Of a DNA stretch of 64,000 bases, positions 1 to 32,901 are shown in pieces. The DNA is from Escherichia phage VEc33. The translations under genes and the position numbers were made by a program. Numbering within the stretch: position 1 is the stretch's first letter; the number at the start of each line of letters is the position of its first letter. The stretch is taken from the sequence record NC_048818.1; one strand, written 5' to 3'. The notes below the pieces were generated by a model. That model saw nothing but the letters and a program-made list of their open reading frames with translations, ran no database searches and was not told the origin of the DNA.

Positions 1-551
1 AGAGCCTTATAACTGTATCCAGCTTGCATCCAGAGATTACGAAGAGATCGAACATTACCCAAATTCCAGAATTTCCACGGAACTACCTCTTCATTGGTTC
101 CAGCATGGAACGTGTTTGCAGAGTAGATAGTCATATCAAACTCTGGGCCATTGCCATAATACAAAGCATTTTCGCCTAGAGCCAACTCCATAATATTTTG
201 AGCCATAGAGAAGGCAGCATAGTTTGAGCCTAATTTATTAGTGCAATGATGTTTACCATTTTGGAAGGCAATCAGTTTTGGATTACGTTCCTTCATAGCT
301 TCCATAATGTGGATAGCAGACGGGCTATTTTTAGCTTGATCCATCCAGAATGCTAGAGTAGATGCTGTAACTTTGGCACCAGAATTAAGCTGATCCTGCA
401 CATCCAAAGTAACAAATACTAGATCAGGGTCTTTATCAACCCCATGCATAGCCACAAAAGCGAAAGAAGGCATTACGATATGAGTAGTACCACAATCTCC
501 TGGAGTTCCTAGAGATTCAATATCTAGCATACCAAATGGTTTTACTTTCAT
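1..551 (-). CDS. Partial DEDD-like 3'-5' exonuclease; N-terminus in window, C-terminus beyond window start
   Basis: Minus-strand ATG at 551-549; translation MKVKPFGMLDIESLG... has a D-x-E exo I-like motif. ORF runs off the window edge. Confidence 0.45.
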   Translation of the reverse strand, partial: MKVKPFGMLDIESLGTPGDCGTTHIVMPSFAFVAMHGVDKDPDLVFVTLDVQDQLNSGAKVTASTLAFWMDQAKNSPSAIHIMEAMKERNPKLIAFQNGKHHCTNKLGSNYAAFSMAQNIMELALGENALYYGNGPEFDMTIYSANTFHAGTNEEVVPWKFWNLGNVRSLRNLWMQAGYSYKA

Positions 552-17965: not shown

Positions 17966-17994
17966 TTGCTTTCAGGAAAATTTTTCTGTATAAT
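17966..17994 (+). promoter_or_regulatory. T5 early promoter, PN25-like (TTGCTT, 17 bp, TATAAT, AGATTCATAAATTTGAGAGAGAGGAG)
   Basis: TTGCTT 17966-17971, TATAAT 17989-17994; sequence matches from memory the classical T5 PN25 promoter. Confidence 0.8.
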
Positions 17995-28777: not shown

Positions 28778-29267
28778 TTTCAAATTGCCCGTATATGCTT
28801 TACGGGCGTTTGTATCAATTGAGCAAGAAGGTGATTATTCCGTAATTACAACAAGGTATAATAAATATGTGCTAGATAACAGGAAGTTGCCTGGCACTTT
28901 TTCTCAACGTAGGCTTATTCTATTTGAGAAACGGAAAGAATTACCATACAAGCTCTATCCTATTAGGGGTAGAATATCAATGTTGTCTCAATTAGTTGGG
29001 TCAAAGCGTAACCAATTTATAGATTCTGATGGAAATCTTATTAATTGGAAGAAAACTACGTTCTATGATGTTGTCACCTCTAAAGTTTTGCATTCAGCTA
29101 GAATTTATAATGGAAAATACCAATGCTATGTGGCTAAAGTCCCTTATCCATTTGTATTATCCTATGTTCCAGCATATATAAGCTATATTCTGGTAAATAA
29201 TAGCCCTGTTATTTACCAAGTCCATCAAGAGGAGCCTGAAATTCCTAGACTTAGAATAAAATTATGA
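28770..29267 (+). CDS. Hypothetical protein (165 aa)
   Basis: ORF track; apparent GTG start overlapping the polymerase stop; start uncertain. Confidence 0.45.
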   Translation: MLDFKLPVYALRAFVSIEQEGDYSVITTRYNKYVLDNRKLPGTFSQRRLILFEKRKELPYKLYPIRGRISMLSQLVGSKRNQFIDSDGNLINWKKTTFYDVVTSKVLHSARIYNGKYQCYVAKVPYPFVLSYVPAYISYILVNNSPVIYQVHQEEPEIPRLRIKL

Positions 29268-30616
29268 AGGTTGTTATATCTAATAAAGCCTATTTCAAGC
29301 CCGATGATGAACTTTGGGATTATTGTAGTAAGCAAACCACTTATCACATAGAGACAATGACTAGTAAATACCCTATTATGTATAAGAATAGTGGTGTTGT
29401 TGCCAAAGAGATTAAGTGGATTCCTATTACGCGTCTGGACTTACTGGATGCCAAAGGAGTAAAATACGAATTAGTCGATAAACGCACATTAGCACCGGTA
29501 GATATACCAAAACCGTCGTTTAAACTGCGTGAAGAAGATCAGCTTCCAATATACGAAGAATGCGATGATACCTGTATTATTAATGGTAAGCCTGGATTTG
29601 GTAAAACTATCCTAGCTCTTGCACTTGCGTATAAATTTGGCCAGAAAACTTTGGTAATCTGTACGAATACATCCATCCGTGAAATGTGGGCGGCAGAAGT
29701 TCGTAAATGGTTTGGGTTTGAACCAGGTATCATAGGTTCTGGAAAGTACAATATTGATCCACCAATTGTAGTCAGTAATATTCAAACAGTGAATAAACAT
29801 GCGAATAATCTTTCTAAAGTATTCGGTACTGTTATAGTTGATGAAGTTCACCATTGTGTGGCTACAACTTTCACTAATTTCCTAGAAATATCATGTGCTC
29901 GCTATAAAATTGGACTATCCGGTACACTAAAACGAAAAGATGGTCTACAAGTTATGTTCAAAGACTTCTTTGGATATAAGATCTTTAGCCCACCGGTTAA
30001 TAATACTGTTGCACCTACAATCCATAGGTACTCCGTGCCTGTTGAGCTATCAGGAAACCAAAACGTACCGTGGGCATTACGTGCTAACGATGTGTATAAC
30101 CATCCTGAATATCGAGAGACTATTATAAACCTAGCACATTTATATGTGAATATGGGGCATAAAGTACTCATTGTAAGTGATAGAACAGAGTTAATCCAAA
30201 CAGTACTAGAAGCTCTTGCACAGCGTGGTGTTACAACATATGAAATTATAGGGGCGACCCACTTAGATGACCGATTAAAAATTCAGGAAGATATAGCAAA
30301 AGGTGGACCTTGTGTACTTGCAGCAGCTCAAAGTATATTCTCTGAAGGTATTTCTCTTAATGAGTTGTCTTGTTTAATAATGGGAAGCCTCATTAATAAT
30401 GAATCTCTCATTGAACAGCTTGCAGGACGTGTTCAACGTATTGTCGATGGTAAACTCGATCCTATTGTTGTAGATCTAATTATGAAAGGTGGCACTGGAC
30501 TAAGACAGGCTTCTGGACGTATGGCAGTATATCGTAACAATGGGTGGAAAACTATTACCATGACTCCGGAGAAAGCAGTTCAATTAGCTAAAATTGCATT
30601 TGGCAACAGCTCATAA
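29264..30616 (+). CDS. Superfamily 2 DNA helicase (T5 D10-like)
   Basis: Walker A GKPGFGKT, DEVH box VIVDEVHH, C-terminal helicase motifs; 450 aa. Confidence 0.85.
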   Translation: MKVVISNKAYFKPDDELWDYCSKQTTYHIETMTSKYPIMYKNSGVVAKEIKWIPITRLDLLDAKGVKYELVDKRTLAPVDIPKPSFKLREEDQLPIYEECDDTCIINGKPGFGKTILALALAYKFGQKTLVICTNTSIREMWAAEVRKWFGFEPGIIGSGKYNIDPPIVVSNIQTVNKHANNLSKVFGTVIVDEVHHCVATTFTNFLEISCARYKIGLSGTLKRKDGLQVMFKDFFGYKIFSPPVNNTVAPTIHRYSVPVELSGNQNVPWALRANDVYNHPEYRETIINLAHLYVNMGHKVLIVSDRTELIQTVLEALAQRGVTTYEIIGATHLDDRLKIQEDIAKGGPCVLAAAQSIFSEGISLNELSCLIMGSLINNESLIEQLAGRVQRIVDGKLDPIVVDLIMKGGTGLRQASGRMAVYRNNGWKTITMTPEKAVQLAKIAFGNSS

Positions 30617-30628
30617 ATGATGTATAAT
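30600..30628 (+). promoter_or_regulatory. Sigma70-type promoter (TTGGCA, 17 bp, TATAAT), first of a tandem pair
   Basis: TTGGCA 30600-30605, TATAAT 30623-30628, downstream ATATACATAAATTTGAGAGAG. Confidence 0.6.
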
Positions 30629-30699
30629 ATATACATAAATTTGAGAGAGAAAGTTTCGGATTGATAAGGAAGTCCGAAGCAGAAAAATAAAAATTTTAG

Positions 30700-30729
30700 T
30701 TGCTAAATTCTCTCGAAATCTAGTATAAT
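30700..30729 (+). promoter_or_regulatory. Sigma70-type promoter (TTGCTA, 18 bp, TATAAT), second of a tandem pair
   Basis: TTGCTA 30700-30705, TATAAT 30724-30729, downstream ATATACATAAATTCGAGGAG. Confidence 0.6.
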
Positions 30730-30836
30730 ATATACATAAATTCGAGGAGAAAACAAAAATTAAATTCTTCGATTATGAAAAGCTATACTTACTAGCTAGA
30801 GGAAATTCCGACCTAATTATTAAGCTATTCAAAAGA

Positions 30837-31121
30837 ATGATTGCAGAGCCTGATGCTCACCAATTATTGGTCGGTTCCTCATTCATTTTGAATGAATCAA
30901 CAATAGTTGATAATCCAAATAAATTGTCTAATAGACAACTGGCAGAATATCTAGGAATTTTAAGTCTACGAAATTATGCCGAATACAAGTTTACAAACGA
31001 TCCTAGTTTGGACATACAATATGTTCCAGTATGGATACCACGTTTAGTAATCGACACTAACCCACTAATCGCAATTAACAAATCGAAATTAATCTTTAAA
31101 GAGGAAATAAAATATGGCTAA
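30837..31121 (+). CDS. Hypothetical protein (94 aa)
   Basis: ORF track; weak SD. Confidence 0.4.
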   Translation: MIAEPDAHQLLVGSSFILNESTIVDNPNKLSNRQLAEYLGILSLRNYAEYKFTNDPSLDIQYVPVWIPRLVIDTNPLIAINKSKLIFKEEIKYG

Positions 31122-31887
31122 GTCTTGGGGCGAAACTACTGGCGGTTCTAACGATAAAATCGAATTCCTGAAGTTCAACAACGGTATCACTCGTGTTCGT
31201 ATCGTTTCTGGTGTTCTTCCACGTTATGTCTATTGGCTGACTAATAAAGAGGGTAGCGTAGCTCCTTTCGAATGTCTTCGTTTCAACCGTGACAAAGAGA
31301 GCTTTGTTCGTGGTAAAGCTGATCCGGTTCATGAGATGGGCTTCTTTGAGAAAGAGCTGGATAAAGATGGTAATCGCGTTCCGCTGAAACCGAAGAAAAA
31401 CTATATCGCTTTTGTTATCGACCGTTCTGATAACAAACTGAAAGTAATGGAAGTCAAAGCTACTATTCTGAAAGGCATCCAATCTATTATGAAGCAGTTG
31501 AATCTGGCAACTCCATTTGATATTGATATTTCTATCGAGAAAAAAGGCAAAGGTTTCGATACTGAGTATGATGTACAGCAGATTGCTGCTATGCAGTTCC
31601 AGATTAAGCTGCAAGATCCTAACAGTGCAGAATCTAAGCAATATGCTGCGGATGTAGATCTGATTGGTGAAGCTATGTGTGATGAAGATGGCGACATCAT
31701 TAAGTTCGAAAAAGTTCCTTCTCTGGAACAAACCTATCCGGTTCCTACCTATGAAGAGCAGAAAGAAGCAATTCTAGCCTTCATGGAAGGTCGTGAGAAT
31801 AAAGATGATGATGCCAAATCTGGTAATAGCAATGCAGGTTCCCAGAAAGGTATTGACTCAGAAGCTGCAAGCGATCTGGACGACTAA
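31114..31887 (+). CDS. Hypothetical protein with strongly acidic C-terminal tail (T5 D11-like by position)
   Basis: 257 aa; C-terminus NKDDDAKSGNSNAGSQKGIDSEAASDLDD; GC-rich codon choice; SD AAAGAGGAAATAAAAT. Confidence 0.5.
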   Translation: MAKSWGETTGGSNDKIEFLKFNNGITRVRIVSGVLPRYVYWLTNKEGSVAPFECLRFNRDKESFVRGKADPVHEMGFFEKELDKDGNRVPLKPKKNYIAFVIDRSDNKLKVMEVKATILKGIQSIMKQLNLATPFDIDISIEKKGKGFDTEYDVQQIAAMQFQIKLQDPNSAESKQYAADVDLIGEAMCDEDGDIIKFEKVPSLEQTYPVPTYEEQKEAILAFMEGRENKDDDAKSGNSNAGSQKGIDSEAASDLDD

Positions 31888-31893
31888 TAAATA

Positions 31894-31918
31894 GAGGGGC
31901 TTCGGCCCCTTTCTTTTT
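31894..31918 (+). terminator. Rho-independent terminator
   Basis: AGGGGC-TTCG-GCCCCT then TTCTTTTT. Confidence 0.75.
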
Positions 31919-31923
31919 AACCA

Positions 31924-32901
31924 ATGAGAATATTATTTAGTGCTGATCATCATATCAAACTAGGACAAGATAAAGTTCCAAAGGAATGGCAGAAGCGTCG
32001 TTTCCTGATGCTAGGAGAACGGTTAAATGATATATTCCATAATCATAACTGTGATCTTCATATTGCTGGTGGTGATATTCTTGATGTTGCCGACCCGTCG
32101 TCAGAAGAAATAGAACTGCTTGAACAGTTCATGTCAAGACTTGACCACCCAGGTAAAATCTTTACTGGAAATCATGAAATGTTAACTAAAACGATTTCAT
32201 GTCTATATCATTATGCAGGAGTTATTAATAAGGTAACGAGTGGTAAGTGGGAAGTAATTACCAAACCATATCGTTCCCCTGAATTTGATATTGTTCCGTA
32301 TGATGAGATCCATAAATCCAAATGGAAACCGTCTGAATCAAAACTATGTTTCACGCATGTTCGTGGTGAAATCCCTCCACATGTAAAACCAGAAATTGAT
32401 CTAACTAAGTATAACTGTTATGATACTGTAATTGCTGGCGATTTACATTCTTATACTAATAGCCAGACTATCGGATCTACTAGACTTCTCTACCCAGGGT
32501 CTCCATTAACTACATCGTTCCATAGAGAACGCACAAAAGGTACAAATGGTTGCTTTATCGTTGATACCGACACATTAAAAGTAGAATGGATTGAACTAGG
32601 TGATTTACCACAACTGATTCGTAAAACAATCGGAGCCGGTGAAGAGATGGAACCTAGTGATTATGATCGTGTAGTCTATGAAGTTACTGGTGACGTTGTT
32701 CAATTAAAGTCTATCAAAGACTCTGATTTATTAGATAAGAAGATTAACCATCGAGTTACTAAAGACGCTAAGTTAAATCTTGTTGATCTTGATATGTTAG
32801 GTGAACTTGAACTTTACTTCCGTGAAGTCGAGAAGCTATCTCAAGGCGACATTGATAGAATCTTGGCTAGAGCTGCGAAATATGTCAAAGATTACAATTA
32901 A
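31924..32901 (+). CDS. SbcD/Mre11-like nuclease (T5 D12-like)
   Basis: Calcineurin-like phosphoesterase motifs ADHH, GGDILD, GNHE. Confidence 0.85.
   Translation: MRILFSADHHIKLGQDKVPKEWQKRRFLMLGERLNDIFHNHNCDLHIAGGDILDVADPSSEEIELLEQFMSRLDHPGKIFTGNHEMLTKTISCLYHYAGVINKVTSGKWEVITKPYRSPEFDIVPYDEIHKSKWKPSESKLCFTHVRGEIPPHVKPEIDLTKYNCYDTVIAGDLHSYTNSQTIGSTRLLYPGSPLTTSFHRERTKGTNGCFIVDTDTLKVEWIELGDLPQLIRKTIGAGEEMEPSDYDRVVYEVTGDVVQLKSIKDSDLLDKKINHRVTKDAKLNLVDLDMLGELELYFREVEKLSQGDIDRILARAAKYVKDYN

Follow-up and report, generated by a model that had tools for sequence, protein, structure and literature searches.

The gap between the D10 helicase gene and the T5.125 and D11 genes of Escherichia phage VEc33 raises the question of what two promoters, set some 100 bp apart in DNA with no obvious gene of its own, might serve. 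We address it within the window, a 64 000-nt stretch of sequence record NC_048818.1, and refer to positions 30600-30836 as the interval; D11 encodes the single-strand DNA-binding protein (SSB). The window belongs to a T5-like phage: this region of it matches more than 400 T5-like phage genomes, at 95-99% identity for Tequintavirus and ~89% for Epseptimavirus. Across the interval it differs from the majority T5-like sequence at one base, in the loop of a hairpin, and the T5 loci in our collection (L016, L034, and L035) align with it free of gaps. The explanation that, as a whole, we consider probable combines a promoter pair, P31A and P31B, with a T5.125 gene of 120 codons that would be started at AUU just behind P31B.

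The P31A/P31B promoter pair

The 19-nt box TATAATATATACATAAATT, which the original prediction had reported as an identical element repeated about 100 bp downstream, is present exactly at both 30623-30641 and 30724-30742, with a spacing of 101 nt. It is the core of a 31-nt direct repeat of 87% identity (30615-30645 and 30716-30746, again spaced by 101 nt). With up to three mismatches allowed, the window contains seven copies of the box, every one on the + strand, compared to 0.17 expected from shuffles. In the promoter scan P31A reads TTGGCA-17-TATAAT (11 of 12 consensus matches) and P31B reads TTGCTA-18-TATAAT (10 of 12), and these are the two top + strand promoter-like sites in 29500-32000. 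Both copies have hexamers near TTGACA and TATAAT, with a spacer in the 16-18 nt range of sigma-70 promoters. The two promoters proposed from the sequence hold up, as do the Shine-Dalgarno-like purine runs noticed behind them: GAGAGAGAAAG at 30643-30653 behind P31A, and GAGGAG at 30744-30749 behind P31B. The A/T-rich upstream block and -35 element of P31A lie within the final codons of D10 (Table 1).

To place the pair among the promoters of this phage, we listed every TATAAT-N-(C/T)ATAAA site in the window. Members of this family have an A/T-rich upstream block, a -35 element like ATTTGCT, TATAAT, a 6-nt discriminator, and a transcribed box, ATAAATT(T)GAGAG..., in which the purine run also serves as the ribosome-binding site (RBS); in every other member found in the window, the N25-like copy at 17989 among them, the start codon lies 22-27 nt past the predicted +1. 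P31B shares with other T5-type promoters of the window the layout of its UP-like block and -35 element. Both boxes carry the features of the N25 type (upstream block, TTGC-type -35, TATAAT, ATAAATT..GAG, and location on the early-gene strand), and from the sequence we predict both to be sigma-70 promoters of the early N25 type of T5. The shared "downstream box" of the original prediction is the -10 element, the discriminator, and the conserved initial transcribed sequence ATAAATT.GAG.AG of this family.

The T5 N25 family as known has an A/T-rich upstream block, a TTGCT-type -35 element, TATAAT, and an initial transcribed sequence reading ATAAATTTGAGAGAGGAG. P31A matches the copy at 17989 in the -10 element, the +1 register, and the first 15 transcribed bases, and P31B matches it in the first 7; the discriminator is ATATAC in P31A and P31B but AGATTC in N25. 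P31A also departs from its N25 relatives in having no gene behind it. That promoter escape depends in part on the transcribed region is reportedly established, through work ascribed to Kammerer et al. in 1986 and to the Hsu laboratory. The +1 register that we apply to A30635 and A30736 is borrowed from the T5 N25 oligo TATAATAGATTCAT, which covers -12 to +2 (PMC7472727).

The comparison with T5 that the original prediction had proposed as a check supports the promoter pair. T5 has the same -10 element, box, Shine-Dalgarno sequence, and ATT, and RefSeq record NC_005859 annotates "promoter P31A" (75467-75541) and "promoter P31B" (75568-75642) at homologous positions of the same D10-T5.125/D11 locus. 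These are orthologous, with nothing of substance different, and the tandem module was therefore already known, as part of the T5 reference annotation. In record AY587007 the first copy appears as "repeat c copy 7" and the second as "putative early promoter T5P38"; the first copy is thus labelled there as a repeat only, not as a promoter. No ATT start is associated with P31B in the public T5 records, which give T5.125 as 94 aa. A literature search, conducted without the T5 genome paper, retrieved no experiments on P31A, P31B, or T5.125, and nothing on ATT starts in T5-like phages.

Tandem strong promoters are found at E. coli rrnB (P1-P2) and in phage T7 (A1-A2-A3). Like P31A and P31B, these are co-directional strong promoters ~100-120 bp apart that serve one transcription unit, with room for simultaneous occupancy, but in contrast to them no differential regulation is detectable here for the T5 pair, and we know of none for P31A relative to P31B.

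Table 1. Features at the D10-D11 locus, in window coordinates
Feature	Coordinates	Strand	Basis
D10 helicase gene	29264..30616	+	ORF list; D10 / ATP-dependent helicase in annotation of T5 and relatives
P31A upstream A/T block AAAATTGCAT and -35 TTGGCA (30600-30605)	30590..30605	+	promoter scan
P31A -10 TATAAT (30623-30628), discriminator ATATAC, predicted +1 A30635, N25-type transcribed box ATAAATTTGAGAGAGAAAG	30623..30653	+	
Hairpin in P31A leader, A-rich tail, no U-tract	30653..30680	+	RNA folds
TTG mini-ORF, nine codons, MIRKSEAEK	30661..30690	+	rejected as gene
A-rich UP-like block AGAAAAATAAAAATTTTAG and P31B -35 TTGCTA (30700-30705)	30681..30705	+	promoter scan
P31B -10 TATAAT (30724-30729), predicted +1 A30736, transcribed box ATAAATTC, Shine-Dalgarno GAGGAG (30744-30749)	30724..30749	+	
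T5.125-family gene, 120 codons, proposed ATT (AUU) start 30759-30761	30759..31121	+	open frame, orthologues, PHROG 4258
D11 single-strand DNA-binding protein gene	31114..31887	+	T5 annotation
Intrinsic terminator closing the P31A/P31B-T5.125-D11 unit	31893..31912	+	terminator scan; T5 annotation

The T5.125 reading frame and its start

Public T5-like annotations begin T5.125 at the ATG at 30837, giving a 94-aa product that ends at 31121, and the original prediction likewise took 30837 as the first coding start with any support, crediting it with a weak Shine-Dalgarno sequence. We find no Shine-Dalgarno sequence at that ATG. The frame is instead open back to 30729, and GAGGAG is followed after 9 nt by an in-frame ATT at 30759, which is 23 nt past the predicted +1 of P31B and so within the 22-27 nt range of the other family cassettes. 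This ATT has what we looked for in a non-AUG start, namely an open in-frame extension and a Shine-Dalgarno sequence 5-10 nt upstream. The earlier view that neither promoter is followed by an ORF or a properly spaced start is thus right for P31A but not for P31B, where orthologues have an ATG in place of the ATT.

Annotation gives the Epseptimavirus orthologue 363 nt (120 aa), with an ATG that occupies the same alignment columns as the ATT of the window. All nine Epseptimavirus sequences have ATG, and ATT is found in all 25 T5-like loci, T5 included, a number that rises to 33 after a metagenome scan. The Shine-Dalgarno sequence is GAGGAG in the ATT clade, stronger than the GAGAGA of the ATG clade. 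Further afield, a start codon occupies the same residue in Sugarlandvirus, Novosibvirus, Priunavirus, and Cetovirus (ATG) and in phage D232 (GTG), and the N-terminal consensus of these five lineages is M-(L/I/V)-x-(F/Y)-(D/S)-(Y/F)-(E/N)-K. The homologous codon is likewise ATT in a distant lineage represented by Logan contig L061, at 56% identity, where it lies 7 nt past AAAGGAG and the gene has been called at 94 aa. Going by the alignment, the ATT of the window is homologous to the ATG of its orthologues. Because orthologues use ATG or GTG for this residue, and because database homologues are mostly 116-122 aa long, ATT is the derived state. The original prediction had also asked whether relatives carry an intact ORF where this phage has a frameshifted pseudogene: an ORF does start inside the interval in relatives, but the window is not frameshifted and differs from them only in the start codon. 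Over 30724-30800 the window has 100% identity to 169 phage records in GenBank; among those sampled, none carries an annotation there, while a CDS is annotated in most of the ATG-clade records sampled.

Polymorphism within the ATT clade bears on whether the extension is translated. Among 30 ATT-clade sequences, codons 2-26 show seven synonymous and no replacement polymorphisms, an outcome with probability ~1e-4 (2e-5 to 3e-4) for a random synonymous fraction of 0.21-0.31, in what is a small sample of 7-9 sites; with sequences from outside the 30-sequence set added, the ratio becomes roughly 8 synonymous to 1 replacement. None of the 30 sequences has a stop or frameshift in the T5.125 frame. The minor alleles differ from the Epseptimavirus alleles, and were therefore not imported from that ATG clade. 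This pattern shows protein-level purifying selection on the 25-codon extension in the ATT clade.

The extended protein matches PHROG 4258 over positions 1-120 of the 120 in the profile, and Met27, the residue that would open the 94-aa form, is not conserved in the T5.125 family. An AlphaFold model of the 120-aa form, built with 18 homologues, has a pLDDT of 92.9 and a pTM of 0.87. A strand and two helices, at pLDDT 95-97, make up its residues 1-29, and so in the model these N-terminal 29 residues are an integral part of a confidently predicted fold. Searches with the 120-aa protein for a function gave no Pfam family (PHROG 4258 is itself listed as function unknown), and structure searches gave no PDB fold match (best E = 1) and, in BFVD, matches to family members only. 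From the reading frame, its orthologues, and its polymorphisms, we consider it likely that T5.125 starts at AUU 30759 and encodes 120 aa; a product truncated to the ATG at 30837 could still be made, in place of the longer form or together with it.

The P31A leader and conservation of the interval

The hairpin that had been placed at 30654-30678 is real and larger than first described, with a 10-bp stem (30653-30662 paired to 30671-30680), an 8-nt loop, and a folding energy of -14 kcal/mol (z = -5.5); of 200 shuffles, none folds as well. It is kept in Epseptimavirus, and in Sugarlandvirus KPN4 with a 3-nt loop, while four other lineages have the promoters without the hairpin. Four single changes were found in it, none of them compensatory (two keep a wobble pair and two break a pair). 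The stem is followed by the A-rich sequence CAGAAAAATAAAAA, the terminator scan of 30600-30836 found no terminator, and no Rfam match of the interval is better than E = 0.16. Since the hairpin has no U-tract it is not a terminator, and P31A transcripts should therefore read through P31B. The suggestion that the module makes a short RNA finds no backing here, given the lack of a terminator between the promoters, the A-rich tail, and the Rfam result. In the simplest reading, the hairpin is a leader structure of the P31A transcript.

No ATG, GTG, or TTG ORF of at least 20 aa occurs on either strand in 30617-30836, and P31A is without a gene of its own in this phage. Three other roles were considered for this segment and rejected. 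The mini-ORF of Table 1 was discarded as a leader peptide, since its TTG lies within the hairpin stem and KPN4 does not preserve the reading frame. Occlusion of the T5.125 RBS in the long (P31A) but not the short (P31B) transcript was suggested by the minimum-energy fold, but a comparison of pair probabilities across seven lineages, with shuffled-upstream controls, gave no consistent occlusion signal, and in the window the unpaired fraction of the RBS is 0.61 in both transcripts. As for a replication origin, GC skew does not inflect at 30.6 kb and follows gene orientation.

The segment 30629-30699, which spans the P31A box, the hairpin, and the A-rich block, separates Tequintavirus from Epseptimavirus by only 2 fixed differences in its 72 nt, as compared to 13-36% difference at nearby third codon positions and to 9 fixed differences in the 24 nt of the P31B -35 element and spacer. 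Within the T5-like clade, too, the P31A segment is among the best conserved of the region. Its conserved positions fall mostly in the P31A transcribed box or the A-rich P31B upstream block, and its variable positions in the ~20 nt separating the two. Where an Epseptimavirus genome has a homing endonuclease gene in place of the 3' end of the helicase gene, the P31A module is intact from about -45 onward. Judged from these comparisons, the P31A module is not decaying.

Elsewhere in the family, the homologous gap holds two promoters in Novosibvirus and in Vibrio phage D232, and three in Sugarlandvirus KPN4, where two gene-less promoters precede the proximal one. In Providencia phage PR1 and Vibrio phage Ceto, a promoter at the helicase stop drives a small gene before the T5.125 homologue, of 84 aa (PR1_126) and 134 aa (CETO_52), respectively. 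PR1_126 and CETO_52 are unrelated to each other. As it is seen in PR1, Ceto, Novosibvirus, D232, and KPN4, a gap with several promoters and an optional cargo slot is widespread in the family.

A working model and its rivals

Under the explanation we favor, both promoters would fire rightward in vivo, at a distance of 101 bp that should be far enough for P31A and P31B to be occupied simultaneously. P31B would be a full expression cassette, with its +1 at 30736, a 23-nt leader, GAGGAG, 9 nt, and the AUU as the initiating codon of T5.125. Transcripts from P31A (+1 at 30635) would carry the hairpin at their 5' end, pass P31B, and add to the transcription of T5.125 and D11. The original prediction had the module drive a block running from D11 to dUTPase; it probably does drive the downstream genes, but the unit is more likely T5.125 plus the overlapping D11 (the D11 start and T5.125 stop overlap by 8 nt), ending at the terminator at 31893-31912, which has a T-run and an 8-bp stem with 5 GC pairs in the terminator scan and is an annotated terminator in T5. 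T5.125 would then come first on an abundant mRNA, with its AUU start keeping synthesis far below that of D11 despite a good Shine-Dalgarno sequence; D11 is provided with a GAGGA and an ATG of its own. Initiation at AUU is very weak in E. coli, and for this reason we expect T5.125 to be low relative to D11. SSB is needed in stoichiometric amounts, which would fit a doubly promoted unit. The E. coli genes infC, which encodes IF3, and pcnB have an AUU start behind a good Shine-Dalgarno sequence, an arrangement that lowers translation and is sensitive to IF3 discrimination. T5.125 resembles them in having this rare codon behind a good Shine-Dalgarno sequence, and differs in that AUU initiation is deduced for it from comparative data only.

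An ATG-to-ATT change could instead have killed the original start, leaving T5.125 as a 94-aa gene begun at ATG 30837, or as a dying one, and 30736-30836 as a 101-nt untranslated leader of P31B. Every sampled public T5-like annotation does start at ATG 30837 or later, the protein database carries the 94-aa call (P0003), and AUU is a poor start codon. Yet an untranslated leader accords badly with 25 upstream codons that vary (nearly) only synonymously in the ATT clade, with no stop or frameshift among 30 sequences and with minor alleles that are not those of Epseptimavirus. The 29 N-terminal residues belong to a confidently predicted fold, 30837 has no Shine-Dalgarno sequence, the one before the ATT is stronger than in the ATG relatives, and a second lineage (L061) has ATT at the same position. 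We regard loss of the upstream start as unlikely.

The two remaining proposals concern P31A. The original prediction had allowed for the remnant of a deleted gene, and in that form P31A and its hairpin would be what decay has left of a promoter-plus-small-gene cassette, now capable of accidental transcription only. The promoters of PR1 and Ceto that drive their 84-aa and 134-aa genes from the same position speak for such a history, as do the two gene-less promoters before the proximal one in KPN4, and a TTG 26 nt past the predicted P31A +1 fits the cassette geometry, although it opens just nine codons. Against this, tblastn with PR1_126 and CETO_52 gave chance hits only in the interval, which is more conserved than the flanking coding DNA; the segment ranks among the region's best conserved both between genera and within the T5-like clade, and the module is intact beside homing endonuclease insertions. 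A decaying remnant thus seems to us improbable, somewhat more so than loss of the upstream start. Least probable is that P31A gives rise to a small RNA or a cis-regulatory leader, for example a hairpin and A/U-rich tract bound by SSB in an autoregulation like that of T4 gene 32, or that the tandem promoters and the A/T-rich tract form a transcription-primed replication origin like T7 1.1A/1.1B. In favor of such roles are a stable, conserved hairpin in a nearly invariant segment, its location between the helicase and SSB genes, and the statement in PMC3632103 that T5 replication origins are not mapped at the sequence level. But no terminator or U-tract follows the hairpin, no Rfam family matches, the hairpin shows no covariation and is missing from four other lineages that keep the promoters, the P31A transcribed box together with the upstream element of P31B covers most of the conserved positions, and the long transcript showed no RBS occlusion.

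Returning to the promoter pair with its AUU-started gene, we think it likely that the AUU start of T5.125 arose from AUG and became fixed across Tequintavirus (~200 GenBank genomes), with a strengthened Shine-Dalgarno sequence and a match in L061. If so, this suggests selection for an IF3-sensitive, throttled start on mRNA from two very strong promoters, and the 94-aa annotation of the gene would be wrong in essentially every T5-like genome. The ATT start is apparently unannotated, and would be a new instance of a known phenomenon. What looks like an empty P31B leader would be the opening 26 codons of a gene that is conserved throughout Demerecviridae. Gene callers pass over ATT, and for that reason the T5.125 annotated in T5 and close relatives would be ~22% too short. 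We would therefore advise use of the 120-aa form in expressing, deleting, or modelling T5.125. The ATG and ATT clades, which differ in Shine-Dalgarno strength, may also offer a natural case for the study of AUU initiation in phages.

Promoters and start codons across the window and other lineages

The tandem early promoters P31A and P31B belong to a family of promoter-leader-start cassettes with further members on both strands of the window, in all of which, as listed in the table, the start codon lies 22-27 nt downstream of the predicted +1; the copy at 17989 is essentially the classical N25 promoter. In the lineages of Klebsiella phage KPN4 (locus L037), L063, and L062, the -10 box of the proximal promoter directly adjoins the T5.125 homologue's start codon, with the junctions TATAATAATC-ATG and TATAATA-TTG found among them. 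The start codon is thus absent from the proximal-promoter transcript in these lineages, and the T5.125 homologue must be expressed from an upstream promoter or promoters. The KPN4 gap contains three TATAAT promoters.

Coordinates of cassettes, junctions, and homologous genes
Feature	Location	Strand	Remark
Further cassettes	window 11300, 17989, 20234, 21600, 62343	+	
Further cassettes	window 1696, 2879	-	
-10/start junction	L037 880-903		Klebsiella phage KPN4
-10/start junction	L063 990-1003		
-10/start junction	L062 about 100-115		
HNH endonuclease region	L004 1213-1745		Epseptimavirus beppo; corresponds to window ~30590
HNH endonuclease region	L006 973-1503		Epseptimavirus SE7; corresponds to window ~30590
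T5.125 homologue	L061 1423-1785		Logan SRR23015428 contig, 66 kb
T5.125 homologue	L062 158-463		protein P0016

Uneven divergence between the two genera

Between the window and Epseptimavirus, the ATG-start clade, two blocks within 30700-30758 are strongly diverged: the P31B -35 and spacer (fixed differences at 9 of 24 positions) and the Shine-Dalgarno (SD) sequence with its spacer (fixed differences at 7 of 16 positions as well as an indel of 2 nt), both of which are invariant within each clade. P31A and its leader carry just 2 fixed differences in 72 positions, far below either block, and the ATG/ATT switch falls inside the diverged P31B/SD block. Some Epseptimavirus genomes have an HNH homing endonuclease gene between the helicase gene and P31A, which in beppo is split into two pieces. 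In endonuclease-bearing genomes the helicase 3' end is divergent from the window, and homology restarts at AAAATTGCATTTGGCAAC, approximately -45 of P31A.

The T5.125 protein, its homologues, and the D11 junction

An ATT preceded by AAAGGAG occupies the homologous start position in L061, a distant relative with 56% identity. Its gene call begins at an internal ATG and gives 94 aa, the identical short-call artefact found for T5. For the L062 homologue, the gene caller skipped the true start, a TTG. Other candidate too-short homologues occur in BFVD: A0A2H4PRI8 of Proteus phage PM135 (92 aa) and H6WXA1 of Vibrio phage pVp-1 (67 aa).

Downstream, the T5.125 stop overlaps the start of the SSB gene D11 by 8 nt (ATGGCTAA, window 31114-31121), an arrangement that suggests translational coupling of SSB to the upstream gene; D11 nonetheless has a GAGGA of its own. 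The AlphaFold model of the 120-aa T5.125 protein (window 30759-31118) is very confident (pLDDT 92.9), and a PDB search with it gave no significant match (best E = 1). The protein may have an undescribed fold, and throughout Demerecviridae its gene is kept beside those for the helicase and SSB.
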